NCBI GenBank assembly: GCA_002780005.1
Contig: PEWV01000025.1
Coordinates: forward strand, 25,150-89,149
From: Candidatus Aquitaenariimonas noxiae
GTDB taxonomy: Bacteria > Omnitrophota > Gorgyraeia > Aquitaenariimonadales > Aquitaenariimonadaceae
DNA: 64,000 nucleotides
Direction of reading: 5' to 3'
This document shows, in pieces, positions 502 to 44,410 of this stretch (within the stretch, counting starts at the first letter, position 1; every line of letters begins with the position of its first letter). The position numbers and the translations under genes were made by a program. The notes under the pieces were generated by a model. That model made no database searches. It saw nothing but the letters and a program-made list of their open reading frames with translations, and had not been told where the DNA came from.

Positions 502-507
502 CTTCTG

Positions 508-1038
508 TTACGCCTTTCCTATAAATTCAGCCTCTTCGTCATATCTTTGCCTCAATTCATCGCTCGTAAGCGGTTTCGCGCCTTCCTGGACGCTCAGAAT
601 AAGTTTCAAAATACCATTTTCTTCGCTTTCGGCGACGTACGGTATCGGCTCATGCGGCTTATTCAATAATCGCTTTAAAGCTAATTCTATTATTCTGGTA
701 ACAGGTATATATTGATTTAGACTTTCCCCTTCAATCACTTGGCTATCGTCTACAGAAACAATTTGAGCCTTACCGGCCAAAGAATCAAACATATGTTTCC
801 CCCTATTAGACTCTTTTACAACAGAGACGACCCTTACCTTTTTGCCTGCTTTTTCCGCATCTCTTATATAACTATTTACTCGCGCTGATAGTTCGGTGCC
901 ATCGCTTGCAATTACTACTAAATTCGAAAGGCCTTCTTGGTCTTTGAGTTCGGCCAATACTTTTAGCAGATTCGGGGCATAACTACCTAAATTTCCTATT
1001 GTCGTATCTATGCCCACTAATATCTCTTCGCCGTCCTC
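508..1038 (-). other. conserved C-terminal module (~175 aa) shared by the giant paralogs, copy 1
   Basis: EILVGIDTTIGNLGSYAPNLL..NLVVIASDGTELSARVNSY..KKVRVVSVVKESNRGKHMFDSL..QIVSVDD..YIPVTRIIELAL..KPHEPIPYV..ENGILKLILSVQEGAKPL..RYDEEAEFIGKA* is about 60-65% identical to the C-termini of the 11597..24508 and 24511..34656 proteins. Confidence 0.75.
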
Positions 1039-11595: not shown

Positions 11596-11596
11596 T

Positions 11597-12136
11597 TTAC
11601 GCGTTTCCTATAAATTCTGCCTCTTCGTCATATCTTCTTCTTAATTCCTCTTCGCTCAAAGGTTGCGCAGGAGGCAGCATAATAAATTTCAATATTCCAT
11701 CCTCTTCCCTTTCTTCAACGTAAGGAATCGGCTCGTAAGGCTTATTTAAAACCCTCATTAAAGCGCATTCAACGATTCTTGTTATCGGAATAAATTGGTT
11801 GAGCGTTTTTCCGTCTTCGCTCATTATTCTCGTATCATCTACCGAGATAATCTGAGATTTGCCTTCTAGCGAATTAAACATGCGCTTGGCCCTATTGTCT
11901 TCCCGCACAATAGCTGCAGCCCTTACCTTCCTGCCTGCCCTTAAAGCATCTTCTAAGTATGCATTTAAATGCGCCGAGAGGACATTTCCTTCACCTGCAA
12001 TCACGGTTAAATTATCCAACCCTTCTTTTTGTCTAAGCTCAGTCAATATTGTAAGTAAATTCTGCGCATAATCCCCAAGATTGCCTATTTCCGTATCAAT
12101 GCCTACCAATAGCTCCTCGCCATTATCTTTAGCTTC
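11597..12136 (-). other. conserved C-terminal module, copy 2
   Basis: EELLVGIDTEIGNLGDYAQNLL..NLTVIAGEGNVLSAHLNAY..KVRAAAIVREDNRAKRMFNSL..QIISVDD..FIPITRIVECAL..KPYEPIPYVEEREEDGILKFIM..RRYDEEAEFIGNA*. Confidence 0.75.
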
Positions 12137-15100
12137 CTTGGCTAGTGCCCGTATATTCTCGACAAAACGTTCGGCTTGAATCCTACCCGGTTCTGCTTTC
12201 CCTTCAACTTGAGGCAATATAATCTTAAATGTAGTTCCTACTCCGGCTTCAGTATCAACATCCATATCTCCTCCGAAACTTAAGGCGAACTGGCGCGATG
12301 TAGCAAGGCCGTGGCCTTTTGATAAGATACCTGTGTCTTCCTTATCGCTGGAACCTCTCACAAAAATAGCTTTTGTTTCAGTTTGGGTCTCAGGATCCAA
12401 AACTTTTTCTAACATCTCGGGTTTTCTTATGCCGCCGGCATCATCTTCCACTTCTATTAAGACCTGGCCATTAGACGGCTTTAGCCTAACAGTGACCTTA
12501 TGCTCGGCTCCGGCTTCGACATACCTGGGTATATTGGTCAAGAGGTTGCTTAAAATACGCCTCAAGCCTCCGCGGCTTGCCTTCACAATAAGCCCTTCCT
12601 GGGGCTTCTCAAAATATATACGAATATTTTTATCGTGAAATTCCTTGCCTCTCGCTTGCAGGAAACCGCCAAGGAAGGCGCCTAGCTCTATATTTTCCAT
12701 TACATAACTATCCAGCATGTCAAGCCCTGATTCGGCAAACTCAAGCGCAGCCGCCGAGAAATCGCCTTCAAAGGATTCTCTGCATATCTCAAGAACAGAA
12801 GGATCTGTAATAGCATCCAGCCTGGTTGGGTTTTCTGTAAAATAAACTTTCACCGCGCCATATGCCTGCCTTAATTCATCGGCAAACGCCTTGCCGTCTT
12901 CTACGACTGCATTCCAATCACCTGTCTCGCGGCCGTGGTAATAAGGCCTTTTTCTCTCCTGCTGTGTAACTTTTATGCTGTCAAGCAGCGTATAAACTGC
13001 CATGAATTTTTCTTTTTCGCTCGCATCTGCATCCGGCCTTAGATTATCTTGCACATAAGCTAACCAGCCATAGAGCTCTGTCATCGGCTGCAGCACATCA
13101 TGAATAAAAGCGACCATCTTCACGGATTCCTCTGTTGGCTCAACAGTTACGGCCGGCTGTCCCAATGGGGCCTTCGCACCTTCTGCAGTTCCTTGAGTGT
13201 GCATAAGCTCGCTCCGTATAGACTGAAACACTGCAAGCGTCTCTACACCTTCCTTACTCTGCCTGAAGGTTTCTTCTCCCGCAGCCACAAAGGCATCTGC
13301 GCGAATCTTGTCTTCCGGAACAAGGCGCGCGTATTTATACCTTATCATAGCGTTGCCTTCGCCTTTTCCTTTGTCACGTTCGAGCAGAATATAGGAATTT
13401 ATTAGAAGTTCGGGTATAAATTGAGAAATAGAATCTGCTCTTTGCAGGAGATTCATATCCGAAGCTGCCTCCTGCTGGAATCCATTTTCCGCAGCCACTT
13501 CTTCTGTAATACCCGTCTCATGACGCAAGATAAGTATTTCAACGTCCCCTAAGACTTTATCGCTCACTCCTGCTTCTCTAAGCCACTTCAAGGCGAAATT
13601 CGCTGACAATCTCGGATGCTGATTTGATTTGTAATGCAAGTATTGAGGGGTACCGCCTTTAAAGCCATCGGACGGGTGCACGTAATAACCCTCAAAAAAT
13701 CTGTCAATATCGTGGAACAATCCGGCAATAAGAGCTGCCGGATCAGCTGAAGGATCAATCTCCCTGATGATCCCTGGTATAGATCTCATGTGTGGCGGCA
13801 TATTCCTAATAAAAAGTTCGTCTCTGCAGTTTTTATTGGCGTCCATCCAATCGAAAAGCCATTGGGCTTTTTCGGGATCTGTCATCTTATTTAAATTTGT
13901 TCGGTTTTCTTCAATAGCCGTTCGTAACCTTCCCAGTATCTCATCGGATTCTTGCCGATGTGTTATATCTATTGGTGCTGTGCACCTCATATGTTCCGTA
14001 ATTTTGTCTCTGGCCATAGCCAGCCTACTTTCACTATACGTACAGTGCTGCATTACATAATCGCCTTCTACGTCTATATCGCAGATTCTATCCACAAGTT
14101 CTTCGTCCTGTATCTGGAAAAATATATTAGTAAGATAATATACGTTTGGTTTCCCGCGAACCGGCTCTCTGGGCTCGCTGTCAGGTGCATCCTTTATTGC
14201 AAGAAAACCTAAGCGGCGAAGAGCTTCGAGCTCATTCGCTATTACAACTCGCGCATAAGGCTTGCCTGTCCTTGTATTTTCCCGTCTCCATTCACCTTGC
14301 GCGCTTCGTACGGTTATTGGGTTAATCCCTATCTGACTCCTGTGAGCGAATAAATCGCACAGGGCTTCTGCAGGCGAGCCCTTAGGCGAAGCTAGGCCGG
14401 AAAATGCTGTAGTTACGCCATGCCACCCTTTCTTCGACTCAGCTGTTATTACGGGTGCCGGTTGGGTTGTAGTAGAAGAATCCGGAAGAGTACTCTGACC
14501 TAAAATTTTGTCAACCATTTGCCGCAAAGCATGCACTTCTTCTGCCTGTAATTTGCTCACCTCATCATAATGTCTCAAAGGCTGACTGCTTAGCCTAGAC
14601 GACCTCTGTAAGGACGGAGCATCGATCCGAATATTACAAAGCCGGTTAACAAGATAACGCGGCATTTTTCCCTTCAACTCTTTCCTCAGACTTATCTTAT
14701 GCGTTGACGAGTTTCTATCTATATTGACTATTCCTGCCTCCTCTAGATTTGCTATTTCAATTCTGACCGTTTCGTAACTGAAAACCCCCTCGCCGAAATT
14801 CTCCTGGTTCTTAAAACGCAATTGTTGCAATTCGCTGATCGTTAAAGCTCCTCCGCTTTTAAACCTGGTTGCCAAAACTTGTAGCTCAGGAGTAGGCCAA
14901 TCTTTGGTCAAAAGAATAGACTTCAAAAATTCAGCCGGCGAACCTTGCGGATACGTACGGTGTGCGGCTGCATAAGGCGGTTTGGATTCAACATTAATAA
15001 TATAAGAGTAAAGATTACCCCAATAGGCTTTGACTACAATATGGTAGATAAGATAGTCTTCGACCTTCATACCTAAAAGATCTTCTAATTCTACCAGACC

Positions 15101-18100
15101 TACTGAGCCGAAGAATATGATCTGTCCGCCTGGTTTTAAAACCCTTAAGACCTCTTGCCATGCGGATACGATAAATTCTTCACTTTGTCCTACAAAAACA
15201 TCGGATAAAAGTAAAATTTTGTCTACGCTACTATCATTTAGCGGAATGCCCCTCAAGGGAATATTTTCTGGGTTGCTCCTAAAATCTCTCTGCAGAAAAC
15301 GAATATTAGATTGTCCCGGAATAGACGCATCTGCATAAGCAATAGCCCTTTTTAAATTCTCAGACCGTGCATCTATCCCGTAAACCATTACTTCGGGATT
15401 ATTCCTTGCGATGTCAACTGAGTCTTCTCCGCCACCGCATCCTAAATCCAGCACCACTTCCCCGCTTCTAAATGCTACTCTCTCCAGAAGAGCTCTTTTC
15501 TTATCGATTATGTTGGCTGCGCGTTCCATTGATGGATCGCTTCTTCGCCACGGATATCCTATTACGACCCCATCTATCTGCGGTACTATATCTTGTTCAT
15601 CTTTTTTCCCATTCTTAAAAGCCTCACTTATTAATCCGACAATATCGCGATGAAGCTGGGCATATTCTTCTCCCATCTCACGTCCGGTCAATGTCAGATA
15701 ACTCCACAATTGCCAGAGTTCTATAGGCGTTAAAACGGCGCTGCTCCGCCAGGATTCAAGTAATCTTTCTGAATCTTCGATCTCCTGCGCCGTAAAGGTG
15801 CCATAATGCTCCAATATCTGCGCAACCTTATCGCCAAACTCCTCGAATCTTTCCTCTAAAAGTCTGGCCTGATTTGCTGATAAATAGGGGTGTAAAGCCC
15901 TCATCATTTCAGCTACCTCTTGTTCCACTTCTTCTGTTTCGCCGTTGGTAAGTTTCTTTTCTCTCGCGTGCCTAGCTTCATGACGAACCATCAAGGCTAT
16001 TACTCGGGTTAAATAGTTATATCTTCCGATATTATCCCGCACCTTCTCGCGTGCCCTATCGACCATAAGCTGCCGCATTAACGCTAAGGGGAGATAACCG
16101 TTTTGCTGCGCGGGAAATTCACCTTCTCTGAAATGGCCGCCCAGGCCTCTTCCGGCATGACCTATCACAAATCTTGCTACAGGATCCGCAACATCTTGCC
16201 ACAGGCAATAACTTCTGGCTTCGGGAGGAGAACGAGCGTCAGGGTCTAAAAGATATATATTTGTATCTTTCAAGTCTTCGGAGGCCTCAGCCTCTTCAGG
16301 AGTATCCTTATAATAATTTAATGTCAGCCCTCGCAAGTCAGCTAAGAGCTTGTTATCTTCCTGGGATTGTCTTGTTTCGCTTCCTTCGGTATCGCTTATA
16401 TAGCAACCCGGTTTTTCTCCGTCAAATATGCGTTCGAGCATAGGATTTGTGATATTATCGTGATCTTCTTCTCTAACGCCGGGTCCGGCTATGGTGGAAT
16501 GAGGTTTTAAAGGCCTGATGGGGCCTCCGAATAATCTATCGATTTGATCCTGGCTAAGGTTCCGCTGGGATCTATCCCTGCGCTCAAGATAAACCCTCCT
16601 GACACCTTCTCTTCTTAGCGCATTCGCATATGCGGTTTCTATGACGAGCCATCCTACCGTTGCTCTTCTTTCAAATTCATCCCAGTAGTGCGGTGTATCG
16701 CTATCCGGCTTCATGTTCGTCACAGGCCAGGCGATATTACCTTGCTCATCAATACGAGCAGGCCCGCAAATATAAAGATTACGATCAAAATAGCGATTTA
16801 ATAAATGGCGCGCTGTCAATCCGTCTCTCCGGTGCACTACCGGACGCAAGGCGCTAAGCCGGCGCAATGTATCTTCCCACAATTCCCTATCCCCTTTTCT
16901 TTGCCGGTCCCTGGCAACATTCTCCGCGTAAGCGGCAAAAGCCATATGTATGTCACGCCATACAATAAGAGCATCCGGCCGCCATTCTATTCTATACATG
17001 ATCGCATCGTGCACGGATGACACTCTTTCTTCAACAAAATCACGTAGCTTTCTATGTGTCTTGCGCCATTTGCCGCTTCTTATATCTCCAATAACATCTG
17101 ACATCAGGAAATAGGTCTCATAATCAATAAAACAATGCGATAAGATGCCGCGCCTTATGCCCCGCACTATGCGAATAGGGTTACTCAAAAACCATACTAG
17201 AAGGATTAGAAACACATCTTTAATAATTGTGGTAAAAATAATCATCATTCTTTGGATGTTGTATGCCTTCTGCACATACTCGAATTTATCAAGGAATGTC
17301 ACATGGTATCCGGCCCTTTCTTTGCCCTCCATCGCGCGGTTAAAGGCGCGTTTCTCAATATCTATCAATTTAAACATGGTTATGTTGTCGAGGATCTTTT
17401 CGCTTATCCAATTATCATAGTAAGGCCATAATTCCCGATAGTGGGCGGTTTCGTGCTCTATAACACTGTAAATGTTGGCCACGCTCGAGGTATCTAGATC
17501 TTCTTCGGTAAGCTCTTGCACTTCTTCTATTGGGATATCAACCTTGCCAGCGCGCACAGCATTCTCTATCGCTTGCCTGCTATACTCGACGGGATTTATG
17601 TTATACCGCACACCAGCCCCTCCTGGAGCGAAAGTATAGGCGTAGCCTCTGTTCATTCTTCCTGTATAACCCGCCACCCATGGAGGAGTTGCCCCGTCCC
17701 GGTAAATCGGAACATCATTCGCTTCCATCCAACTGAACATCTCGGGATCGAGTTCTCTCATAGCCATAAGGGCTGTGCGCAATTTAGGCCCATATAAGAA
17801 TCCTTGGCCATCTCTTTTATCAATATAGCGGCTTCCTGACCTCATCTCATTACCCATTCTATACCAGTCCGGCCTTCTAATTGTCCGACGTGCTTTTGCG
17901 CGGTCGGCATTTTCAGGGATTTTATATCTAATAGCCCTATCATTAGCTGCGCCTAACTCCTGCTGCACTCTTACATACTGAGGAATGAAAATCGTCACTA
18001 ATAAAAGAATAACTAATAAGGCACGCTGAAGGATCGTAATTTCTCTACCGGACCGTAGCTGCTTAAGCATAGCTCCCGCTGAAAAACTGACCATAGCTCC

Positions 18101-21100
18101 TAGAATAGTCAAGGTAGTCGCTCCAGTTACCCAAGCAATTCCAACAGGATGAATCACAAGAATACCCACTGCCAAAAGAATACTCGCTACAAACATCGCA
18201 ATACTTGTCTTATAACTAACTCCTCGCGCCAGAAGCGATATGGAGAGCGCAAGAGGAATAAATAGAACAAGTGCCGGCATAATGTGCATACCTACCAATA
18301 AATTAATAATCATAAAAGAAGCGCCATAAAGAGCGAACGCACCAAAGAACCGGCCTGCGCTATTGGTAGCATTGGATCCCGCTCTTTGGCCTGTAGGCAT
18401 AGCCTTTACAACGAATCCGGAAGGAGTAAATGCATCTTCGGCATAATAACGGCTTGATACAAAAAGGGATATCTGGTAGAAAAGGTGCTCATAATCTTCT
18501 CTTGTAGAGGCGTTCTCTTTCAAGCCGGCCAAATATTCTAATCCTCTTTCATCAAAATAATTGCCTGAAGGGAACGAGGGCTTTTCTTTTGTGAAATATT
18601 CCCGGATTTCATCAAATAGAGGTTTGTTATAAACGCATGAGGTGTAGAGTATTAAATCTCTGAATACCTGGGCTTTTTCTTCGTCTTTTTCTTCAACGGC
18701 CAGGCCTATACTATTATCATGGCCTAGTTCGTGGAACAGGCGTTCTGCTAAAAGCCATTTAGTTGCGGAGCGGTATTCTGAAGGTGCACTTAATAATGTT
18801 TCAACAAATGTTTTATTTAAAAGTATTTCGACATTGCCATTTATATCTATGTAACGTGCGGCATTTACGGTAAAGTTGTCAGACGACACGACGCGTATAA
18901 CAGGGGGCGCCCTGTTCTCTTTAAGATTTCGCGCGATAATATCTTTCAAGATAGCCTCTGCCTCGGTGCCCTGAGTTTCGGTTTCTAGCGCATCAAGGGC
19001 GTCGTACACAAGGCCTTGCAGCTTCTCCCTGTCACCCTGGGCCTCTCCACCGCGAACCGGCCTTTTCGATTTTTCAAGCTGTAGTTCTAATCCGTCATAT
19101 TTTTCATCAAACACCAAATCCTCATATTGTATAGGTCCGGTTCCTTCTCTAGCGGTAAGCATGGTTTTCATGCTCTCCCCGGACGCTTCTTGTTTCGTGC
19201 GCACCAAGGCAAAACGCCTGCTTAATAACGGCAAAAGTAGGCGCGCGACAACATAAGCGACCAGTGATGCGCCGACTAATATCAGAGGTCCCGTGCCAAA
19301 AGTCGGAGGCGTTGCTACCGCTGGAGGAATGTTAGCTACACCTTGTAGATATCCACTTAGTTGTTGGTGATAATTGTTTATAAAATTGCCGGCAAAATAT
19401 AAAGTTGCCCCGGTCGATACAACACCCAGGATCTGATTTAAGAATGTCCCGAACCCTATGCCAACCCAATATTTTGTAAACCTATGGCGGAGTTCCCGCT
19501 CAAAAATACTATACCAAACCATGCTCACAAAACTCATTTCTATCGTATCGATGAAACTCGCCGCAAACAAGAAAACGGTATATGTGAGGGGCATTGTCGC
19601 AGGGTTAAACAGGAATATGAAGATCTGCGGGAATAGTATGGTCTTGAATAAGACTGAAGCCAATCTTATAGTGCATATCCATAACCATGCCTTTCTGAGC
19701 TTTCCTTCAGCCCCTGAAGTATCTCCCTGCAAGGCTTCGTCGGCTTTACGGTAAGACACGTAGCTTGAAATCACCATTACTATTGAACTCGCAATGCCTG
19801 CCAGGAAAGAAGTCATCGCTAACCTGGTGAAAGATTCGCCCATGAAATTGTAAGGAAGGACTACCAACACCCTTATTATGCCTCCGAAAACATTAGTCAG
19901 GAGCCAACCGATCTCGCCTAGGGCAAAAATACGGCTCCGGAAGAAGCTCCTGTAAAGCTGCCATTTTTGGCTGAAGGTGTCAGTATCCTTTTCATAATAC
20001 ACAGCATCGGGCGTCTCGGGCGCGGCGCGCCTAAAACCGACCAAAACTCTATCGGTCTCGGGCGAAACGTCATCTTTGGCGACTCTGATCTTATTTGCAT
20101 TAAATTCTATCACTTCTTCAATAGGCAATTCCCCTATTCCCGGCAATTTGACAGAACGTATATCTACGATCCGTTCGGGCCAGGTTTCGCACACACACGT
20201 GACATTAACCACTGCTGCTGCTACGCTTTGCCCTGTCTCTGCGTCATGATAATATACAAGATAATCTTTTCTGTCCTTTACACTGCCTGCTGTCGAGGCC
20301 TCTTCCTGTAAGCGGCCTGCTTCTTCGGTATTTCCGGACGGCGCAATAGAATCCAAAAGCCCAAGCCTTCTATTTTCCGCGTTTATTTCAACAACTTCAT
20401 ATTTCCTTACTTCCGGCGAATATATAACTACCGGCTCATCGGCCAGATCTTTACGAAAATCTTCCACCTCGAAAATAAACCTATCCTCACCCGGATCATA
20501 ACTCACCGGGAAGCCCCATACATAGATAACGCCTTCTTCTTTAAGCCTAATCTCGGCTTCGGCTCGTTTTGTCTCGAGCGCTTCGCGCACAGCCGGATCA
20601 AATTCAAATTGGACCAATAATCTATCTACCCAATTATTGTTTCCATTTGTTGAATACTCGCTTGTAATTTTAAACTCTCCTGGCCCGACCTCTTCAGCTT
20701 TTAATCCTCTGCGCTGCCAACCATACTGGACGAGCTCTGCCCTGCATGACCCGTTAGACCATCTCCACATATGCCGCCACGGATAGAGCAAATTTCCAGG
20801 GCCTTCTTTATATTTAAATCCCTCGCCAGCGCAGACAACCATATTAAACCGGTCAGGATAGAATATAAACCACTCTCCTTTAGCGTCCTTAACCGGACGT
20901 ATATTGGAATCACCAAGGCATTTGACTTTTAGGCCTCCTCCGAAATCATAATAAGTAACCAAGCCTGATCCCTCATTGAGTTTAGTCACAACATAACTTG
21001 TGCCTGGTGTTGTTATCCTGATATAAGGATTAAAGGGTTGGCGCACAAAGATTGGGAGCAAAGCCTTACTTACGGCATAGATCACTGCAAAAGGTATCGC

Positions 21101-24100
21101 TATCCAGAAAAGGCTCAAAGCCCGCTCTATAAGCATATGCGGGCTTTTCAATTCAACAGTATAGGAAATATACTTTACGATCACGGCAATAACGCCGGCT
21201 CTTAATAATCCGGCAATTACCTGGCCTATACCCAAAAGGCTCCAGAAATTAGTGCGGACATCTTTAGGCACGGTCCTGTCCCAGCGCACTGTCCTTTCTT
21301 GTATGATACGGCTATTTCCGAACTGTATCATATTTCTATATGCGGATACTAAATTGCTAATTATAAGAACGGCCATAACTACGCCCTGCGCCGAGATCCC
21401 AAAAAGCCCTGCCCAATGCGGTTGGGCAAGTAAGGTAGCCAATAGAAAATAGATCATTACGAAAGCGAATCCAACCATAACCTGCCAGAAGGCAACCCAT
21501 TTTCTATCCTGTATTAATTGCTCCCTTAATTTGAATTCGGGCGACATGGCTAAACCGCTGCGGCGTTCTTGATACGGTCTTTCCGCATCTTTTATCTTTT
21601 CGGTACGATTCATGCGGGCATAGACTATCGTTACTGCAAGTATTGCCGAGAATGCTACAAATGATAATTCCATCCACAAAAATGACATGGAAAGGATGCC
21701 GAATTGCATTTCGGCTACGCGGGTTAAAGTTAAAAGAAGCACGGTCTCCAAAACCCCGAAGGAAGGCCAGGCTAAAAGCTCTCCTACTTCGAGCCATAAA
21801 TTCATAGGGCTTGCCGGCAGGTATCGCGTAAAGTACATACGAAGGAGGCCAAGGAAATTTGGACAAGGGGTCGAGACGATTTCCGGGGGATGAACTTCAA
21901 AAGCTACTATTTCGCCCTGATGTTCCGATGAAAATCTGCCACCGTCAAAACCATCTCTGGTGTCATTCCATCGGACTTCAACGCCCCTTACCCATATTGA
22001 TCTTCCCCTGGTAAGATGATCAAGGATCTCGTCTTTTCTTTCTTGCAAAATGCCTATTATGGAATTGCTGCCGAACTTATTAAGAAATCTCTCCCAAATA
22101 TGCTCTGCGCGCTCATCCTGACGAGATGGCTCAGGCGCTTGGGCTACTTCCGCCTGTTCATCACGTAACCTATTTAGGACTATTACAGCTTTGCTCCATA
22201 TAAAAGGTGCTACCACGGCTGTCCAAACATAAGCTATTAAATCGCTTCCTAAAATACTTGGAAGTCTATGAATAGATTCGTGAGATAAGATAAGTCTTTG
22301 GTCCTGCGGCGAGATAGATTCGAGGGCTTCCCGTATTCTCTCTTTTGTTATACTAGAACCTTTTCTGATGCTGAATGCTAAATTTTTGTCTCTGCCTGTA
22401 ACTATTAAGACATCTTCTGTTTGCTTTTCACTCTCTATGAGTTCTCTTTCTAATGCGACTTGTAAAGACGGATGAATGTCAAAAGGTGGTCCTGCCCTCG
22501 TAGGCGCGCTGGTAGATAAATGCGCCAGCATGTTCAGCGGGCCGCGCGACAAATTGAACAATCTCACGGCTGAAACTGAAAAATAAACTCCTAATATAAA
22601 CGGCAAAGCTGCAAATAACCAGTGCGCATTCAAATAAAAAGCTATAGCGACTCCTGCAATCCCGCCTAAAGCAAAAAGGCTGCTTGCGAAACCTGTAACC
22701 ATTGCCGGCTTAGGAGCGATCGGTATTGAAGAAATATCCTCTTCATCAGATAGCGCCAAAGTCGGCTCTAGATCTAAAATGAATTTATTCTCATCCTTTT
22801 CTCTAAATCCGAACCTGTTAGCGATCGAACGCATTTCTTCATTTATACCTGCAATCTCGCAGCTAAACCTTGTATAACCCCGCCCTTCCAGCCGTTCTAT
22901 AAAAATCTCGAATAACTTTGTACCTATGCCTTGTTCTTGAAAATTAGGATCTACCGCCATTTCTCTAAGCTCGAACGTCCTGCCGTGCACAGGCGAACCG
23001 GTTATATATCCTTGGACCTTACCATTTACCCTGCAGACTAAAATATCCGGCTTTATTTCCGCATCGCCCTGCGACATAGCGATGATCGTTCTATAACCGC
23101 TGGAAAAATCATGGCCGCCGGCTTTTTTGGCTTCTTCGGCTCGGTGCGGATAGATTAAAGAACTAAGCTCTGCGATCCTTCCGACATCATTTTCAAGGGC
23201 CAGCGTAATTTCCGCACCCTTGCCTATTTCTGCAATTAAGATATCTTCTTCTCCGAAATCTAACGCATACTGGACAGGCCTTTGGGCTTGAACAGGCTGT
23301 GGCTCATTTAACACATCTTCAACAATTTGAGTAAGCGAGCTGAATTCCCTGTGGCTTATCCGGGAATAACCCGGAGGCGCCCTGGCAGATTCTGATGTAA
23401 CCCAGTCGGCGACATCCAAAAACATATCTCTATCTTCTAAAGACGACCAAACAGGAAGATCCATAACTGTGGAATAGTCACCTATCGGCAGCCTGCCGAA
23501 GAGTTTCCAAAATCTCAAGGGGACTATTACGTGGTAGATCAGGCCCCTTAATTGTTTTTTTGTCGTAAGCGAGCTCAAGTTTGACGGATAAGCGATCCCG
23601 TACAAATCGCAATAATCCCTAACTATTTGTTTAACATCAGCGATCGAGACATCAGATCCTTTAAATTGCCGCCAAAATCTTATTCTTTCCTCTTTTTCAT
23701 AATCAAAAATTGTGCGATCCTGCCATGACGCGCCGTGTCTAAGCGCCCATAGGGCAGGATGTGTTTGTAAAATAGCGCCTTGTTCGGAAAGCTCCTTTAG
23801 TCTATGTGCTGCTATTTTTCTTGTAACTTTATTACTGTCTGTAAGCTTTTTAATTAAAGTTGCGAGCTCAGCCCTGCTTATTTGAGCAGTAACGGCTTCT
23901 GCATTATCGGCGGGTTCTTTTGGTTCATCCCTATCGGCTGTTGCGGGAACTGCGACGGCATCTTCTTCGGCAACCGGCAATGCCTTCATCTTCATTATCT
24001 GCCTGCAGAGATTTCTATTTATTCTTACATCTGTGGCCCCCTCTTCCTGGCCTACTAATTCATTTGTATATGGATGAGTTGTCTGGCTTGGATTGTAATA

Positions 24101-24508
24101 ACGAAGGATATAGCCGTTCATGCAGCTTATCAGTATCTCGCCTCTGCCGGTCGTATGTTGCAGTTCTGCAACCCAGCCTTGGCCGGCTTCTGCTAAGGCC
24201 GCCCTTACGCCATCCAGGGACAAGTTTTCTTTTGTCCGGCCGTTCCCGTTTTCGATCAATTCGATAAGAAGCTTGGCCTTTACGCTGACAAGCGATTTTT
24301 CATTATCAAAAATCGACGGAGGAATTAAGGCGTGCCTTTTTGTTAACCCCGTTAGAAACTTTGTTATATTTCTTTTTTTAGATGATATTTCTAACGGGGT
24401 GAATATATCCGGATCGGCATAGGCAACAGTCTGGTATATAAGGCAAAATACTAGCGTTAGCGCTATTGCCTTTACCCAGGTATAATTTTTCAAATTAATA
24501 ATGCTCAT
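11597..24508 (-). CDS. giant (4303 aa) polytopic membrane multidomain protein with GNAT, about 20 TM helices, HExxH motifs, SAM methyltransferase, two wHTH-like modules, HD domain, HisKA plus HATPase_c core and the conserved C-terminal module
   Basis: Uninterrupted 12,912-nt ORF with ATG at 24506-24508 and TAA at 11597-11599, 1 nt before the next ATG. Signal peptide VKAIALTLVFCLIYQTVAYA|DPD. Motifs: QEQGIGTKLFE (GNAT), HELGH and HETAH, VVLDLGCGGGEDS (methyltransferase motif I), LFHDIDRFF (HD), FIHDVLQPMTEL (H-box-like), then LRRILSNLLTNIPRYV, IEVEDDAGGI and GHGLATSRQF..GVGTTFKI (GHKL N, G1 and G2 boxes). Many hydrophobic 20-25-aa stretches at aa 600-650, 905-1150, 1520-1760 and 2050-2180. Confidence 0.85.
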   Translation of the reverse strand: MSIINLKNYTWVKAIALTLVFCLIYQTVAYADPDIFTPLEISSKKRNITKFLTGLTKRHALIPPSIFDNEKSLVSVKAKLLIELIENGNGRTKENLSLDGVRAALAEAGQGWVAELQHTTGRGEILISCMNGYILRYYNPSQTTHPYTNELVGQEEGATDVRINRNLCRQIMKMKALPVAEEDAVAVPATADRDEPKEPADNAEAVTAQISRAELATLIKKLTDSNKVTRKIAAHRLKELSEQGAILQTHPALWALRHGASWQDRTIFDYEKEERIRFWRQFKGSDVSIADVKQIVRDYCDLYGIAYPSNLSSLTTKKQLRGLIYHVIVPLRFWKLFGRLPIGDYSTVMDLPVWSSLEDRDMFLDVADWVTSESARAPPGYSRISHREFSSLTQIVEDVLNEPQPVQAQRPVQYALDFGEEDILIAEIGKGAEITLALENDVGRIAELSSLIYPHRAEEAKKAGGHDFSSGYRTIIAMSQGDAEIKPDILVCRVNGKVQGYITGSPVHGRTFELREMAVDPNFQEQGIGTKLFEIFIERLEGRGYTRFSCEIAGINEEMRSIANRFGFREKDENKFILDLEPTLALSDEEDISSIPIAPKPAMVTGFASSLFALGGIAGVAIAFYLNAHWLFAALPFILGVYFSVSAVRLFNLSRGPLNMLAHLSTSAPTRAGPPFDIHPSLQVALERELIESEKQTEDVLIVTGRDKNLAFSIRKGSSITKERIREALESISPQDQRLILSHESIHRLPSILGSDLIAYVWTAVVAPFIWSKAVIVLNRLRDEQAEVAQAPEPSRQDERAEHIWERFLNKFGSNSIIGILQERKDEILDHLTRGRSIWVRGVEVRWNDTRDGFDGGRFSSEHQGEIVAFEVHPPEIVSTPCPNFLGLLRMYFTRYLPASPMNLWLEVGELLAWPSFGVLETVLLLTLTRVAEMQFGILSMSFLWMELSFVAFSAILAVTIVYARMNRTEKIKDAERPYQERRSGLAMSPEFKLREQLIQDRKWVAFWQVMVGFAFVMIYFLLATLLAQPHWAGLFGISAQGVVMAVLIISNLVSAYRNMIQFGNSRIIQERTVRWDRTVPKDVRTNFWSLLGIGQVIAGLLRAGVIAVIVKYISYTVELKSPHMLIERALSLFWIAIPFAVIYAVSKALLPIFVRQPFNPYIRITTPGTSYVVTKLNEGSGLVTYYDFGGGLKVKCLGDSNIRPVKDAKGEWFIFYPDRFNMVVCAGEGFKYKEGPGNLLYPWRHMWRWSNGSCRAELVQYGWQRRGLKAEEVGPGEFKITSEYSTNGNNNWVDRLLVQFEFDPAVREALETKRAEAEIRLKEEGVIYVWGFPVSYDPGEDRFIFEVEDFRKDLADEPVVIYSPEVRKYEVVEINAENRRLGLLDSIAPSGNTEEAGRLQEEASTAGSVKDRKDYLVYYHDAETGQSVAAAVVNVTCVCETWPERIVDIRSVKLPGIGELPIEEVIEFNANKIRVAKDDVSPETDRVLVGFRRAAPETPDAVYYEKDTDTFSQKWQLYRSFFRSRIFALGEIGWLLTNVFGGIIRVLVVLPYNFMGESFTRLAMTSFLAGIASSIVMVISSYVSYRKADEALQGDTSGAEGKLRKAWLWICTIRLASVLFKTILFPQIFIFLFNPATMPLTYTVFLFAASFIDTIEMSFVSMVWYSIFERELRHRFTKYWVGIGFGTFLNQILGVVSTGATLYFAGNFINNYHQQLSGYLQGVANIPPAVATPPTFGTGPLILVGASLVAYVVARLLLPLLSRRFALVRTKQEASGESMKTMLTAREGTGPIQYEDLVFDEKYDGLELQLEKSKRPVRGGEAQGDREKLQGLVYDALDALETETQGTEAEAILKDIIARNLKENRAPPVIRVVSSDNFTVNAARYIDINGNVEILLNKTFVETLLSAPSEYRSATKWLLAERLFHELGHDNSIGLAVEEKDEEKAQVFRDLILYTSCVYNKPLFDEIREYFTKEKPSFPSGNYFDERGLEYLAGLKENASTREDYEHLFYQISLFVSSRYYAEDAFTPSGFVVKAMPTGQRAGSNATNSAGRFFGAFALYGASFMIINLLVGMHIMPALVLFIPLALSISLLARGVSYKTSIAMFVASILLAVGILVIHPVGIAWVTGATTLTILGAMVSFSAGAMLKQLRSGREITILQRALLVILLLVTIFIPQYVRVQQELGAANDRAIRYKIPENADRAKARRTIRRPDWYRMGNEMRSGSRYIDKRDGQGFLYGPKLRTALMAMRELDPEMFSWMEANDVPIYRDGATPPWVAGYTGRMNRGYAYTFAPGGAGVRYNINPVEYSRQAIENAVRAGKVDIPIEEVQELTEEDLDTSSVANIYSVIEHETAHYRELWPYYDNWISEKILDNITMFKLIDIEKRAFNRAMEGKERAGYHVTFLDKFEYVQKAYNIQRMMIIFTTIIKDVFLILLVWFLSNPIRIVRGIRRGILSHCFIDYETYFLMSDVIGDIRSGKWRKTHRKLRDFVEERVSSVHDAIMYRIEWRPDALIVWRDIHMAFAAYAENVARDRQRKGDRELWEDTLRRLSALRPVVHRRDGLTARHLLNRYFDRNLYICGPARIDEQGNIAWPVTNMKPDSDTPHYWDEFERRATVGWLVIETAYANALRREGVRRVYLERRDRSQRNLSQDQIDRLFGGPIRPLKPHSTIAGPGVREEDHDNITNPMLERIFDGEKPGCYISDTEGSETRQSQEDNKLLADLRGLTLNYYKDTPEEAEASEDLKDTNIYLLDPDARSPPEARSYCLWQDVADPVARFVIGHAGRGLGGHFREGEFPAQQNGYLPLALMRQLMVDRAREKVRDNIGRYNYLTRVIALMVRHEARHAREKKLTNGETEEVEQEVAEMMRALHPYLSANQARLLEERFEEFGDKVAQILEHYGTFTAQEIEDSERLLESWRSSAVLTPIELWQLWSYLTLTGREMGEEYAQLHRDIVGLISEAFKNGKKDEQDIVPQIDGVVIGYPWRRSDPSMERAANIIDKKRALLERVAFRSGEVVLDLGCGGGEDSVDIARNNPEVMVYGIDARSENLKRAIAYADASIPGQSNIRFLQRDFRSNPENIPLRGIPLNDSSVDKILLLSDVFVGQSEEFIVSAWQEVLRVLKPGGQIIFFGSVGLVELEDLLGMKVEDYLIYHIVVKAYWGNLYSYIINVESKPPYAAAHRTYPQGSPAEFLKSILLTKDWPTPELQVLATRFKSGGALTISELQQLRFKNQENFGEGVFSYETVRIEIANLEEAGIVNIDRNSSTHKISLRKELKGKMPRYLVNRLCNIRIDAPSLQRSSRLSSQPLRHYDEVSKLQAEEVHALRQMVDKILGQSTLPDSSTTTQPAPVITAESKKGWHGVTTAFSGLASPKGSPAEALCDLFAHRSQIGINPITVRSAQGEWRRENTRTGKPYARVVIANELEALRRLGFLAIKDAPDSEPREPVRGKPNVYYLTNIFFQIQDEELVDRICDIDVEGDYVMQHCTYSESRLAMARDKITEHMRCTAPIDITHRQESDEILGRLRTAIEENRTNLNKMTDPEKAQWLFDWMDANKNCRDELFIRNMPPHMRSIPGIIREIDPSADPAALIAGLFHDIDRFFEGYYVHPSDGFKGGTPQYLHYKSNQHPRLSANFALKWLREAGVSDKVLGDVEILILRHETGITEEVAAENGFQQEAASDMNLLQRADSISQFIPELLINSYILLERDKGKGEGNAMIRYKYARLVPEDKIRADAFVAAGEETFRQSKEGVETLAVFQSIRSELMHTQGTAEGAKAPLGQPAVTVEPTEESVKMVAFIHDVLQPMTELYGWLAYVQDNLRPDADASEKEKFMAVYTLLDSIKVTQQERKRPYYHGRETGDWNAVVEDGKAFADELRQAYGAVKVYFTENPTRLDAITDPSVLEICRESFEGDFSAAALEFAESGLDMLDSYVMENIELGAFLGGFLQARGKEFHDKNIRIYFEKPQEGLIVKASRGGLRRILSNLLTNIPRYVEAGAEHKVTVRLKPSNGQVLIEVEDDAGGIRKPEMLEKVLDPETQTETKAIFVRGSSDKEDTGILSKGHGLATSRQFALSFGGDMDVDTEAGVGTTFKIILPQVEGKAEPGRIQAERFVENIRALAKEAKDNGEELLVGIDTEIGNLGDYAQNLLTILTELRQKEGLDNLTVIAGEGNVLSAHLNAYLEDALRAGRKVRAAAIVREDNRAKRMFNSLEGKSQIISVDDTRIMSEDGKTLNQFIPITRIVECALMRVLNKPYEPIPYVEEREEDGILKFIMLPPAQPLSEEELRRRYDEEAEFIGNA
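12209..13126 (-). other. histidine-kinase core (HisKA-like H-box plus HATPase_c) embedded in giant gene 2 (aa ~3795-4100)
   Basis: H-box-like FIHDVLQPMTELYGWL, then N-box RRILSNLLTNIPRYV, G1 VLIEVEDDAGGI and G2 KGHGLATSRQFALSFGGDMDVDTEAGVGTTFKI. Confidence 0.55.
13499..13831 (-). other. HD-domain-like region in giant gene 2 (aa ~3560-3670), paralogous to the one in giant gene 1
   Basis: NMPPHMRSIPGIIREIDPSADPAALIAGLFHDIDRFFEGYYV..NQHPRLSANFAL..ILRHETG aligns residue for residue with the MSPHMQALPDVV..LHDADRFFDGYYV..IQHPRMAADFAR..IRNHEKG segment of gene 1. Confidence 0.5.
15059..15541 (-). other. class I SAM-dependent methyltransferase domain in giant gene 2 (aa ~2990-3150)
   Basis: GEVVLDLGCGGGEDS (motif I), MVYGIDARSEN (motif II) and LKPGGQIIFF (post-II). 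Checked at 15421-15448. Confidence 0.65.
22799..23191 (-). other. GNAT N-acetyltransferase-like domain in giant gene 2 (aa ~440-570)
   Basis: ELREMAVDPNFQEQGIGTKLFEIFIERLEGRGYTRFSCEIAGINEEMRSIANRFGF matches the acetyl-CoA-binding motif A (Q/R-x-x-G-x-G/A). Checked at 22860-22951. Confidence 0.55.
23993..24335 (-). repeat. N-module DNA repeat, copy A (5' end of giant gene 2), ~88% identical to 34000..34342
   Basis: Direct read-off alignment: cattatctgcctgcagagatttctatttattcttacatctgtggccccctcttcctggcctactaattcatttgtatatgg.. against cattatctgcctgcatagatttctatttattcttacatctatgacgccctcttcctggcccactaattcatttgtatacgg.. It encodes the near-identical segment LIPPSIFD..VKAKLLIEL.ENGNGRT.ENLSLDGV.AALAEAGQGWVAELQ..GEILIS.MNGY.LRYYNPSQTTHPYTNELVGQEEG..DVRINRNLCRQIMKMKALP. 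Confidence 0.8.
24347..24399. repeat. small palindromic (MITE/REP-like) element inserted in-frame in giant gene 2
   Basis: CCCCGTTAGAAA (24347-24358) and TTTCTAACGGGG (24388-24399) form a perfect 12-bp inverted repeat around a 29-bp AT-rich core. The element encodes ~18 extra residues (TPLEISSKKRNITKFLTGLT) that giant gene 3 lacks at the homologous position between the signal-peptide cleavage site and HTLIPPSIFD. Confidence 0.6.
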
Positions 24509-24510
24509 GT

Positions 24511-25059
24511 TTAGGCTTTTCCTATGAATTCCGATTCTTCCATATACCTTCTTTCAAGCTCTTCTCTTTCAAGCGGTTTTGCATCTTCCTGCACACTAAG
24601 TATAAGTTTTAAAATACCGTCTTCCTCAACCTCTTCAACGTATGGAATCGGTTCATGAGGCTTGCTTAGTATTTTCGTCAAGGCGCGCTCTATTATTTTA
24701 GCGATTGGAATATAGTAATTCAGGCTGCCTGTAAAGTTATCTATAACACGACTATCATCAACTGAAACAACTTGAGCTTTATCGACTAATGATTTAAACA
24801 TCCTTTTCTGCCTATTGTCCTCTTTCACTATAACTACTGCCCTAACCGTCTTACTGTCCCTTTGCGCATCTGAAAGATATGTATTTAATTGGGCCGACAG
24901 AATAGTTCCCTCACCGGTAATGACCCTTAAGTTTTCCAATCCCTCTCGGTCTTTAAGATTAACCAATGTCTCAAGCAGGCCTGGCGCATAATCTTTCAGA
25001 TTTCCGATTGTCGTGTCTATGCCCACTACTAATTCTTCGCCTTTATCTTTTGCTTCTTT
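24511..25059 (-). other. conserved C-terminal module, copy 3
   Basis: EELVVGIDTTIGNLKDYAPGLL..NLRVITGEGTILSAQLNTY..TVRAVVIVKEDNRQKRMFKSL..QVVSVDD..YIPIAKIIERAL..KPHEPIPYVEEVEEDGILKLILSVQEDAKPL..RYMEESEFIGKA*. Confidence 0.75.
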
Positions 25060-28000
25060 GGCTAAAGATCTCAAGCTAGCCACTAAGCGCACAGCTTCTT
25101 CTTGAGACGGTTCCATGCTTAGCGTAGGCATTCCTGCTATCATATCTTCTTCTTTTGGCAGAATGACTTGCGCTTCTTGCTCTACCGTCTTTACCTTTCC
25201 AATAATATGATCTACTTTAGCCCGTAATAGTTCTCTCTCCTGGTCGGTTAGCTTGCTTACTTCATCATAGTGCCTTAATGGTTGGTCTGTGAGACGCGCA
25301 GAACGCTGTAGGGACGAGGCTTCGATCCTGATATTGCAGATGGCTTCAACAATTTCCCTGGGCGGAGCCCTTGCTAATTCCGGCCTAAGCGTTACTTTGT
25401 GCACTTTATCTGCCCTGTCGATGCTTACTATACCAGCTTGTTCGAGGTTTGATATTTCAACTCTCACTGTTTCGTAACTGTAGGTCCCTTCGCTAATATT
25501 ACTTGGGTTCTTAAGTCTTAGTTGCTGCAATTCAGCTATTGTCAGGGCCTCGCCATTCTTGAACCTCGTAGCCAGCTCTGTCAGTTCCGGCGTTGGCCAG
25601 TCCTTGGTCAGAAGCAAAGAATGCAAGAATACGGCCGGCGAGCCGTCGGGCGTAAACGGAATATGCTCTATTCGCAAGAAATCTTCTGCAATTCTTTCGA
25701 TCGCAGACATTTTATCTTCTATATTTTCTTGGCACATTAGAGGGTCTTTCGCATCTATGATATCTTGCGGCACCTCTATTAAAAGCGCCCACTCTGAACT
25801 GAATCTGCTTCCATCATATTCACTCGTCCTGACCACTTCAACGCCATCTAATCCATTTAACTCATCTATAAAACGTGTAAAATTAGGGTTCGATTCGTCG
25901 GCTTTAAAAGAAACATATAGTTTATTATTGCTCGGAATGTCCGCGCTGCTGGTCTGCTTGTCACTTTGAAGTTTCCTAAAATACAAATCAATTCTTTCTT
26001 GCGGTGCTTCGCCAGAATATGAATACAGTTCTAAATAAGCTCTAGGGGTCGGGGCATCGGCCCATGTAGTATAAATAAATGGCAAAGCATTAAGCCTTCC
26101 CACAACACCATTAATATCTCGATCCTCTCCCTGGAGAGCGTCGTCTGACCACCCGTTTGTAACCATCAAGGCACTATTAACATCTCCGGGATTAAAAATT
26201 ATACCATATCTATCCTGTTCTTTTCGTTCCGCAAAATTTCTAGGGCCGTCTATATATACTCTTATTCTATCCCTTAACAGGCCCTCCGGCTTGCCTTCAG
26301 GGTAGTTGGCCGGAAAGAAAACGATCTGTAATGCCCTTGCAGCTTGATGCCCAAAATGACGGCAAAGGATTTCATGTAAGATATATTCTCCTTTTAATGG
26401 CCATGGTAGTGTTCCTAGAAAATCACGTGAATAGTAAATTGCTGGGTTTTCTGCATCATCTAACTTATTTTGCCCAAGCGCAAAATCCTGACTGTTCTCA
26501 ATTTGCGAAACGACTTCTCTTAAAGTAGCGTTTGGTAAATCATATAATAACGCTAGAGATAATTTATTATTATCAGGCGCAATAAGATCACCCCAAATTC
26601 TTGCAAACAATCCTGGCGCTTCCTCTTGAGATATAGGAGGTGTGGCGCCTTCCTCGTAATATTCGGGGTTTGACAACCTATCGATCGCGCTTCTCAATGA
26701 CACATCGGAAATCTCAGAATTGTTAATTTCTTCAATTACAAATTCCTTTAAACCATCTTCTAGTGGTCTATATTTTCTTTCTGCAATATCTTGATTCATT
26801 CTCTCAAGAGCTATATGCCCCTGCGCTATGTAACCATCGGGTGTGGTCTTAGGCGCAGCAGGCAATGTCGGGGTCGCGCCGGGCATTCTACCCGGAGTTT
26901 TCTCTTGCCCCAGAGGTGTAGGCGTCACTGTCGCTGCAGTCGCCCCCGATGGCTCTGAAAGCACCTCTAAAATATCATAAAATCTTGTCACAACGTCATC
27001 ATAGTCTGATACGACTGCTTCGCCATAACCCCATGTATATCTGCTCTTGTACGTTTTACGCACTAACATCACATCTCTTATAACGTCAAAGTTCCACCAT
27101 TCTGCGTTTGGATCATCTGATTGCATCAATCTTATATTGTAAGCCGGAGTTCCTCCTCCGCCTACATATGCTGCATAGCTGAATCTTGTGACATTCCGCG
27201 CGCCGCCCTTTGCTGATATTCCCCCCATATAAGGAGCAAGATCCTCACTATCCCTTACCATTTTCATCTTTCTTGTGACAACACAAATACTCTGAATAGG
27301 ATCATAAGGATCATATTCTCCGCTCAAAACGCCTTCAGCCTTAAGCCCATCAAATATCTTTCTATAATGATCCGCTTCTTCATCCCCGTCTAATAATTGA
27401 GCGATACCCCTGGCGTATTTTCCTGAAGAATCCAACGTTGTGGCTTTCGGGCCGCTAGAGTTAAAGCTATCGGTTTCATAGAATAATAATCCAAGAACCC
27501 TATTAAAGGGAATATTATCCTTTTCCTGGCCTGCTAAGAATTTAAATTTGTTCAAAAATCTTGCCATTAGCTCGTTCCTTTGCGCTTCTGTCATGTTGCT
27601 GAATTTAGGATCGGCAAATACTTTTCGTGCAACTGCATTCAATACAGCATCCCGGTCCATGTGCGCCAAATACACGTATCTGAGCGTCCTATAAAGGCGT
27701 TCTTCTGATCTCAATGTAATACGTATTTTTCTGTCCTCAGGTTCTGCTATATCAAACTTGTCTGAATATTTACGCGCCGCAAGATCTAAGAGATTTGCGC
27801 GCAATTTATCGGAAGTCCACCCCATATACTCAGGCCTTGAAAATCTTACGATATCCATGAGTAAGTCAAGATCCTCCTGTTCAATATAAGCCTCTATGTA
27901 AGGATCGACAAATGTTCCGTATATCCTGTTTCTAAAGTCATCGCTTCTCATGCCGATCAATAGCGGTTTTATCCTATTTATTTTAACGCTTATAGCCTGA

Positions 28001-34656: not shown

Positions 34657-34755
34657 AATTTTACCCCCCGCAGTTTTTAACTTTTTATTGTATTATCATA
34701 TAACTTGATATGTTATACTATAAATATAATCTTACTTTTTATATGATTTACCTAA

Positions 34756-34784
34756 AGTATAACATAAATGAGAGGGTTTGTAAA
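34756..34784 (-). promoter_or_regulatory. putative sigma70-type promoter for the giant-gene operon
   Basis: On the minus strand: TTTACA (34784-34779), a 17-nt spacer, then TATACT (34761-34756), inside the AT-rich 194-bp gap between the recJ stop and giant gene 3. This is sequence resemblance only. Confidence 0.3.
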
Positions 34785-34850
34785 GGCAAATAACAAGCTT
34801 TTTTAATGGTTAACTACACACTTATTGTGGTTATGCTTATTATGCAGGTT

Positions 34851-42888: not shown

Positions 42889-43065
42889 TTATGCTCTCCT
42901 TTTTTAACTTTTACTTAAATTCTCGCGTCCTGGATCTTAATATCATTTGAACCAAAACGGTAGGAATTCTACAATGTTCTTGCCATATTATACTAAAAAA
43001 AAATAGTGTTGTAAAGAGAATATATAACCCTTTATTTTACAAGAACATATATAAATCAAAATTTG

Positions 43066-44394: not shown

Positions 44395-44410
44395 TTTCCG
44401 CCTCCTGCGT

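Follow-up and report, generated by a model that had tools for sequence, protein, structure and literature searches.

A HisKA-type histidine-kinase core in a 4,303-residue multi-enzyme protein encoded within a tandem array of long Omnitrophota genes

We analyzed a 64,000-nucleotide (nt) stretch of contig PEWV01000025.1 (hereinafter, the window) from the uncultivated Omnitrophota bacterium Candidatus Aquitaenariimonas noxiae. All genes in the window that encode at least 150 amino acids (aa) lie on the minus strand, and three giant open reading frames (ORFs), G3, G2 and G1 in the direction of transcription, abut each other. The middle one, G2, is the focus of this work. The initial annotation of this DNA described G2 as a single ORF encoding 4,303 aa, which is what we find (Table 1), and the positions of the motifs it quoted are correct, namely, FIHDVLQPMTEL at aa 3801 (which places the key histidine at His3803), VVLDLGCGGG at 3018, HELGH at 1926 and HETAH at 2352. 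The 4,303-aa product is also called on independent ENA, JGI and Logan contigs, which come from different samples and pipelines. One of these contigs shows 2 residue differences from the window version across the first 3,332 aa of G2, and the public copies differ from that version by at least 2 residues. Because an ORF of equal length is called on independent contigs, G2 is no assembly artefact; it is a real, intact gene of this bacterium. The assignment to Ca. Aquitaenariimonas noxiae (taxid 1974741) is borne out by exact matches of G1, G3, Tgt, RuvB and RecJ to records of its metagenome-assembled genome.

The G2 protein consists of three major parts. A Sec-type signal peptide precedes an N-terminal part of about 570 aa that comprises a module shared with the paralogs (N-module) and a GNAT acetyltransferase domain. 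The following ~1,850 aa make up the membrane region, with 20-21 predicted transmembrane (TM) helices and large loops, three of which contain HExxH motifs. The tail of about 1,860 aa is free of TM helices and encompasses the fourth HExxH motif, an S-adenosylmethionine (SAM)-dependent methyltransferase, the family modules A and B, an HD-type domain, a HisKA-type kinase core and the C-terminal domain. BLAST self-comparison detects no internal repeats in G2. The central 2,300 aa are almost without detectable relatives; a word-index protein search with the central 2,350 aa produced zero matches, by a method that is nearly blind on G2 queries.

Both sequence comparison and structural modelling support the presence in the tail of a genuine HisKA-type histidine-kinase core that consists of an H-box, a helical hairpin and an HATPase_c domain, in agreement with the H-box followed by N, G1 and G2 boxes that was originally proposed. 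The Pfam HATPase_c model matches aa 3981-4100 with an E-value of 2e-14 and a score of 54 bits against the cut-off of 26. A non-kinase GHKL ATPase without a phosphoacceptor histidine had been considered as well; when the ATPase domain is compared with NCBIfam models and PDB sequences, the best matches, which cover the catalytic domain only, are all histidine kinases, and not MutL, Hsp90 or GyrB. In an alignment of 64 sequences, 60 of them canonical kinases, N213, D243, G247 and G286 (alignment numbering) are invariant, N209, G245, F270, G284 and G288 are conserved in at least 90%, and His3803 together with the following proline occupies the same columns as the SHELRTPL motif of the canonical kinases. 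The H-box itself, HD-x-[RL]-Q-P-x-T-x-x-YGW, follows the classical HisKA pattern. When the last 1,200 aa of G2 were used for an exhaustive HMMER search against 1.84 billion representative proteins, two other large proteins, each a fragment from a short contig, proved to contain the entire 310-aa kinase unit, at 42% and 30% identity; in the three-way alignment, the H-box residues H, D, Q, P, T and YGW do not vary.

Comparison of the kinase core with 45 canonical DHp+CA segments using hhalign yields a probability of 100% and an E-value of 1.6e-40; the alignment is interrupted once, by about 55 residues inserted into the helical region. In the AlphaFold (AF2) model of the core (pLDDT 86, pTM 0.80), His3803 corresponds to model residue 24 and sits on a long helix (residues 14-41), after which come more helices up to residue 153 and then the alpha/beta ATPase; residues 270-283, at the position of the kinase ATP lid, are of low confidence. 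The best PDB matches to this model in a Foldseek search are HK853, YycG/WalK, ZraS and CusS, with E-values of about 1e-12. G2 has in common with canonical HisKA/HATPase_c kinases, such as HK853, WalK/YycG and PhoR, the acceptor histidine in the H-box, the helical hairpin, the N, G1, F and G2 boxes and the DHp+CA fold. In contrast to these kinases, G2 has about 55-85 additional helical residues within or after DHp, and its core is embedded near residue 3,800 of 4,303, behind the methyltransferase and HD modules.

Table 1. Features of G2 and of the surrounding locus. Positions are those of the window unless a contig is named.
Feature	Position (nt)	Strand	Description
G2, complete ORF	11597..24508	minus	ATG start; 4,303 aa, 12.9 kb; would be COS99_02520
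Sec-type signal-peptide-like N-terminus, aa 1-31	24416..24508	minus	sequence reading (K7, K13, h-region, AYA|D) and hydropathy
N-module, aa 32-180	23969..24415	minus	68% identical to G3 aa 77-225
GNAT acetyltransferase, aa 440-600	22709..23191	minus	QxxGxG motif QEQGIG; best named relative RimI
Membrane region, aa 602-2451	17156..22705	minus	hydropathy: 20-21 hydrophobic helices, mainly hairpin pairs, large loops between
HESIH, aa 743	22268..22282	minus	4 residues before a hydrophobic helix
HELGH module, aa 1882-1961	18626..18865	minus	HELGH at 1926; conserved in a protein of a syntenic locus
HETAH, aa 2352	17441..17455	minus	motif
HEARH, aa 2843	15968..15982	minus	in the TM-free tail; weak PF10118 Metal_hydrol match, E 0.079
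Class I SAM-dependent methyltransferase, aa 2997-3140	15089..15520	minus	motif I VVLDLGCGGG
Family module A (GSPAEFL...), aa 3187-3364	14417..14950	minus	59% identical to G3 3003-3178; winged-helix-like by eye only
Family module B, aa 3365-3503	14000..14416	minus	homologous to module A; also in G1, G4, G5
Divergent HD-type domain, aa 3511-3786	13151..13978	minus	invariant H3599-D3600, R, K, H, H-E; 31% identical to G1 2113-2417
DHp-like helical region, aa 3790-3935	12704..13141	minus	H-box FIHDVLQPMTELYGW; His3803 at nt 13100-13102; extra helical insert ~55-85 aa
HATPase_c catalytic domain, aa 3936-4105	12194..12703	minus	N, G1, F, G2 boxes; Pfam, PDB, NCBIfam, alignment, fold match
C-terminal alpha/beta domain (C-module) of G2, aa 4106-4303	11600..12193	minus	family-defining; DTxIGNL, VxVDD, C-terminal Ala
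C-module of G1	511..1089	minus	self-comparison of paralogs
C-module of G3	24514..25098	minus	self-comparison of paralogs
G1, downstream paralogous unit	508..11595	minus	3,695 aa; signal peptide (only hydrophobic segment), protein-L-isoaspartate methyltransferase (PCMT), HAD, modules B and HD, C-module
G3, upstream paralogous unit	24511..34656	minus	3,381 aa; signal-like segment, N-module, pseudouridine synthase, HEAT, about 6 TM helices, module A, C-module
Signal-like N-termini of G1 and G3	G1 11500..11595; G3 about 34375..34440	minus	hydropathy; same in P0026, P0035, P0036, P0041, P0058, P0069, P0076, P0155
Segment ahead of the signal-like segment of G3	34432..34656		about 75 residues after the annotated TTG start
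Junctions G3/G2 and G2/G1	24506..24530; 11593..11620		stop codon, 1-2 nt, then ATG
G4 and G5	L012 21095-27696		1,097 and 1,103 aa; 4-nt overlap
Sigma-70-like promoter match	34756..34784	minus	TTTACA-17-TATACT with TG; consensus match only; AT-rich recJ-G3 spacer; candidate promoter of G3-G2-G1
recJ-rpmB/recG slot	window 34657..34850 and 1..507; L015 8128-30113; L019 1-24201		
Polysaccharide cluster	43000..62000		

The predicted GNAT domain near the N-terminus and the predicted class I methyltransferase both hold up. The Pfam Acetyltransf_1 model matches aa 488-568 (E 1.4e-10; 41.9 bits against the cut-off of 20.7), and TIGR01575 (rimI) matches the same domain with an E-value of 2.8e-8, below its cut-off. 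Three Pfam models, Methyltransf_31, Methyltransf_25 and Methyltransf_11, match aa 3014-3134 above their curated cut-offs; the methyltransferase also matches PDB entry 3mgg (E 2.9e-7), and YGID, with the acidic residue after strand 2, can be read from the sequence. Sharing of modules with the paralogs is real as well: the C-module is 56-59% identical to those of both neighbours, and three more modules are shared with one or the other. For the two modules originally described as winged helix-turn-helix (wHTH)-like, only this part of the claim stands. Modules A and B, both of which start with GSPAE-x-L, are mutually homologous, with copies in G1, G3 and two genes beyond the window; their winged-helix nature finds no support, given that there is no Pfam match and that a PDB profile search returned nothing significant (best wHTH match, MarR, E 1.1). 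The claim of an HD domain is likewise borne out in part, by the motif but hardly by family matches. The H..HD..H..HE..D pattern is kept in 11 relatives, with H96, D97, H128, H160 and E161 (alignment numbering) invariant and D189 nearly so. Pfam HD matches 4 of these 11 relatives with E-values of about 1e-3; the G2 region matches DUF4202 alone (E 9e-4, below its cut-off), Pfam HD is silent on the isolated segment at E≤10, and a PDB profile search is empty.

HExxH motifs are enriched in G2, with four observed against 0.11 expected, a number reached in none of 2,000 shuffled sequences. The HELGH copy is kept as ER[LI][FI]HEL[GC]HDN in a protein from a syntenic locus. The initial annotation placed HELGH and HETAH next to the TM blocks and considered them possible membrane-embedded metalloprotease-like sites. 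Neither part is supported: the two motifs lie 70-177 residues from the nearest hydrophobic segment, in soluble loops; three of the four HExxH motifs are far from any such segment, and only HESIH adjoins one. None of the HExxH segments matches a Pfam peptidase family at E≤10 or a PDB structure, and the PDB profile search with the HELGH module yielded no significant match.

The C-module, about 195 aa long, is common to G1, G2 and G3 at 56-64% identity and, according to the HMMER search, forms the very C-terminus of about 25 representative proteins that range in length from 0.2 to 4.3 thousand aa (kaa). The other domains in these proteins include PAS, HisKA, HATPase_c, REC, PP2C, PHP, GNAT, radical SAM and TPR. 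The C-module contains one invariant aspartate and a near-invariant VxVDD motif, and nearly all family members end in alanine. Its AlphaFold model is of high confidence (pLDDT 95), and the fold search finds no solved structural relative; assignments as HAD-like or VWA/MIDAS-like, considered on the basis of the DTxIG and VDD motifs, are unsupported by that search. Word-index searches returned 0 matches for the C-module alone and two ordinary kinases for the kinase plus C-module; HMMER found relatives that these searches missed. Pattern scans for the C-module across GTDB genomes and JGI metagenome contigs yielded no confirmed relative, and given that they also missed the known carriers, these negative results say little.

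On longer public contigs (such as L012), G1 is followed by two genes, G4 and G5, that together resemble a fourth unit interrupted by a stop codon or a frameshift, with the signal peptide and N-module in G4 and the C-module in G5. The array therefore consists of four paralogous units in the order G3, G2, G1, G4/5, about 13,600 aa in total, with G2 in the second position; the four units have in common the signal peptide, the N-module and the C-terminal domain. The gaps between G3, G2 and G1 are 1-2 nt, and that between G1 and G4 is 6 nt. At the G3/G2, G2/G1 and G1/G4 junctions, the Shine-Dalgarno-like string AGGA is embedded in the last codons of the upstream gene (ATA GGA AAx GCx TAA), 10-12 nt before the next start. 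The tiny gaps, together with the placement of AGGA, suggest that the genes of the array are probably translationally coupled.

We interpret G2 as a membrane-anchored multi-enzyme protein of the Omnitrophota long-protein class that carries a functional-looking kinase core and is one of four tandem units that probably are coupled and associate via their shared terminal modules, a reading to which we assign a probability of about one half. G2 would be anchored in the inner membrane of the producer, with the tail in the cytoplasm, the arrangement that best fits the positive-inside rule. The kinase core is predicted to dimerize via the helical hairpin, to bind ATP in the HATPase_c domain and to autophosphorylate His3803. 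The phosphoryl group might then be transferred to a receiver encoded elsewhere or might regulate the adjacent HD and methyltransferase modules. The C-terminal domain common to the four paralogs could dock them to each other or to a common partner, and the four proteins would form an envelope-associated multi-enzyme assembly, the equivalent of the single 10-150 kaa polypeptides of other Omnitrophota.

The most basic alternative, that the long ORF is a chimeric assembly or a decaying pseudogene that is still open by chance, is hardly credible: although decay occurs in the array, where G4/G5 is seemingly split, and the central part of G2 is nearly devoid of detectable relatives, an ORF of identical length is present in the ENA, JGI and Logan assemblies, in one case with 2 differences in 3,332 aa, a stop-free run of 12.9 kb at 45% GC is impossible by chance, and four domains of G2 retain intact catalytic motifs. 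The observations that do weigh against our interpretation concern the kinase and the topology. On the kinase side, there is no Response_reg match in G1, G2, G3 or the 24 neighbouring ORFs within the 64-kb window, and the C-module itself is not a receiver domain that would make G2 a hybrid kinase (hhalign against the REC profile, probability 1.4%). The label of a sensor kinase in the initial annotation is not supported, given that no receiver is encoded in the window and that the membrane side of the kinase depends on a single weak segment. Pfam HisKA gives no match to isolated G2 segments, even at E≤10. These facts would be compatible with a kinase module that does not engage in His-to-Asp phosphotransfer and is instead a Ser/Thr kinase akin to pyruvate dehydrogenase kinase (PDK) or BCKDK, or else an ATP-binding regulatory module whose targets are adjacent domains within G2 itself. 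The additional helices (about 55-85 aa) that separate the H-box helix from the ATPase point in the same direction, as do the Foldseek matches next after the canonical kinases, in which the whole model aligns with the PDK and BCKD kinases (E about 1e-10 over about 350 columns). Against this stand the textbook H-box, invariant among relatives at only 30-42% identity, the better matches to canonical kinases in both sequence and structure, and the lower TM-scores to the PDK structures (0.35-0.39), so that we consider a role outside two-component signalling improbable.

With regard to topology, Kyte-Doolittle analysis of G2 identifies 21 hydrophobic 19-mers, including the N-terminal one, and one weak uncharged segment, consistent with the about twenty TM helices claimed at the outset; the segments after the N-terminal one fall into about six groups, rather than four blocks. 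The outcome hinges on the weak segment, aa 1682-1700. When it is counted as a helix, the in:out ratio of Lys and Arg residues is 52:15 and the tail is cytoplasmic; when it is left out, the ratio is 40:26 and the tail is outside. Because the positive-inside rule is much better satisfied in the former case, a cytoplasmic location of the methyltransferase-HD-kinase tail appears more likely, and the raw helix parity was set aside, even though an even number of helices follows the signal peptide at each of three thresholds (20, 18 and 16), a parity that puts the tail on the same, exported side as the N-terminus. Every topology model has the GNAT domain on that exported side. Furthermore, a Sec-signal-like segment stands at the beginning of nearly all full-length family members, the majority of which contain no further TM helix; in such paralogs and relatives, the C-terminal domain and the ATP- and SAM-dependent enzymes would be exported, a poor fit with a purely cytoplasmic role. 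The family members with such N-termini carry PAS-HisKA-HATPase-REC arrays, PP2C, GNAT, PCMT, pseudouridine synthase and radical SAM domains, which would be useless in the periplasm, and export of the whole proteins is puzzling because these domains need ATP, SAM or acetyl-CoA. It could be, then, that G2 is an exported effector polyprotein that exits via Sec, with the C-terminal domain as a sorting or docking tag, the hairpins inserting into the membrane of a prey or host, and the HExxH modules cutting the chain into effectors, by analogy with MARTX toxins and polyvalent proteins. The enzymes (kinase, methyltransferase, acetyltransferase and HD in G2; PCMT, HAD and pseudouridine synthase in the paralogs) would work inside the other cell, where ATP, SAM and acetyl-CoA exist. 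This scenario accommodates the conserved signal-like N-termini, including those of members with SecA_DEAD, the combination in G1 of PCMT and HAD with a signal peptide as the sole hydrophobic segment, the even helix count, and the excess of HExxH motifs, with one module kept in a relative. It also fits the proposals that most Omnitrophota are predators or parasites whose giant proteins are linked to prey contact (PMC10066038; 10.1101/2023.11.21.568195) and the detection of RNA of the Omnitrophota predator Velamenicoccus archaeovorus inside dead archaeal cells (PMC13153191). Nevertheless, we regard this scenario, the strongest competitor of our interpretation, as doubtful: the distribution of positive charges favours a cytoplasmic tail, twenty hydrophobic helices would normally stop transfer in the membrane of the producer, no HExxH segment matches a peptidase family or fold, secretion-system genes were not found in the window, the C-terminal domain is unlike any known secretion signal domain, and the predatory lifestyle is a proposal for the phylum rather than an observation on Ca. 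Aquitaenariimonas noxiae. A broader version of this idea, which we find rather unlikely, is that the Sec signal and the invariably C-terminal 195-aa domain mark an undescribed, Omnitrophota-specific class of cargo, that is, enzyme-loaded giants that are exported, sorted or docked and act on or in another cell, with G2 as the membrane-inserting member of a four-protein set from a quickly changing recJ-rpmB slot. If so, the domain would represent a new protein-sorting tag and a new route by which kinases, methyltransferases and acetyltransferases reach prey.

The Omnitrophota are ultra-small, widespread bacteria, most of which are believed to live by predation or parasitism, and nothing about them is as striking, or as poorly understood, as their very long proteins. 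ORFs that are giant, TM-rich and poorly conserved have been reported from this phylum and linked to predation (Seymour et al., PMC10066038; West-Roberts et al., 10.1101/2023.11.21.568195). A recent preprint catalogues 916 Omnitrophota proteins that are at least 10 kaa long, 39% of them with a signal peptide and TM helices, in which the largest Pfam co-occurrence module consists of methyltransferase PF08241, HATPase_c PF02518, GNAT PF00583, HAD and HD (Nielsen & Lui 2026, bioRxiv 10.64898/2026.06.07.730766). The fusion in G2, which had been flagged as highly unusual, is therefore typical of the phylum, because G2 and its neighbours carry exactly this set, and the combination of a kinase, a methyltransferase and a GNAT domain in one long Omnitrophota protein is by itself already documented. 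G2 is a shorter, tandemly split example of a documented type of multi-enzyme protein and not a new kind of system. The proteins with this module ('Module 1') resemble G2 in coming from the same phylum, in the methyltransferase/HATPase_c/GNAT set, with HAD and HD across the locus, in the signal peptide and TM helices, and in that many distinct enzyme domains tile the chain without a dominant repeat. Unlike them, G2, at 4.3 kaa, is below the 10-kaa threshold, its locus distributes the content over four tandem genes instead of one polypeptide, and its TM helices are more closely spaced, with about one per 205 aa. The catalogues apply length thresholds of at least 10,000 aa or, for 'giant genes', more than 90 kb, that is, more than 30,000 aa, and G2 reaches neither. 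The passages of the Nielsen and Lui text that were searched contain no mention of shared terminal modules, of the recJ-rpmB slot described below or of HATPase_c within a complete HisKA-type core with an insert.

G2 also resembles the archaeovorin-type giants, such as the 39,678-aa protein of V. archaeovorus, in its Omnitrophota origin and in the combination of many TM helices with a methyltransferase and other enzymes in one chain (10.1101/2023.11.21.568195; PMC10066038). A divergent SecA_DEAD domain is found in most of the giant genes (West-Roberts et al., 10.1101/2023.11.21.568195) and provides a further link, being present in proteins from the same slot in two related lineages. In contrast, Pfam detects no SecA_DEAD, glycosyl-transferase or glycosyl-hydrolase domain and no HEAT repeats in G2, which is about ten times shorter than these giants and shows no visible link to cell-wall degradation.

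Two further parallels can be drawn. Among the cargo proteins of the type IX secretion system (T9SS), as in the G2 family, large multidomain proteins that are otherwise unrelated combine an N-terminal Sec signal with a conserved domain at their very C-terminus. In T9SS cargo, this domain is a beta-sandwich of 80-100 aa, whereas that of the G2 family is a 195-aa alpha/beta domain without a solved relative; no T9SS genes were seen, and export of the G2 family is only a candidate process. MARTX toxins and the polyvalent proteins of phages and conjugative elements resemble G2 in combining unrelated enzyme modules with hydrophobic segments and candidate HExxH processing motifs. In contrast to these, G2 is chromosomal and is located among housekeeping genes, no peptidase fold was matched, and a delivery apparatus was not identified in the window. 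The locus offers a tractable, mid-sized version of the long-protein phenomenon: four genes of 2-4 kaa, as opposed to one of 100 kaa, with intact catalytic motifs and a confidently modelled C-terminal domain. Should the terminal modules be docking or sorting devices, this would explain the assembly or delivery of such patchwork proteins and would provide a handle for metagenome searches.

The paralogs of G2 carry RNA- or protein-modifying enzymes. G3 contains an RluA-type pseudouridine synthase domain (aa 641-787) and HEAT repeats. Its annotated TTG start, unlike the starts of G1 and G2, leaves a long stretch ahead of the signal-like segment, and the true start may lie further downstream. G1 contains PCMT (aa 687-895), a HAD hydrolase domain (aa 3353-3475), a PcrA/UvrD Tudor-like domain and a weak cytidylyltransferase match, and the split unit G4/G5 holds tandem XRE-type HTH-like repeats.

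The array occupies a slot between recJ and rpmB, the latter on the opposite strand, followed by recG. The same arrangement, recJ, two to five huge genes with a signal peptide and the C-module, then rpmB and recG, is found in three Omnitrophota lineages. The contigs L015 and L019 each contain two huge genes in this slot, with different domain content that includes SecA_DEAD; the slot is thus variable in content. In L012 and L019, recG is followed by rsmD and coaD. Upstream of the array in the direction of transcription are recJ, yajC, tgt, queA, queH, ruvBAC, yebC and a polysaccharide cluster. Because housekeeping genes, such as recJ, tgt and ruvBAC, flank the array, the locus belongs to the bacterial chromosome. 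The polysaccharide cluster encodes a B12-binding radical SAM enzyme, Wzy and a flippase, and its export, chain-length and tyrosine-kinase proteins resemble components of XrtA/PEP-CTERM systems, with scores below the NCBIfam cut-offs. The GC content of this cluster is 0.37-0.42, compared with 0.44-0.47 in the giant genes.

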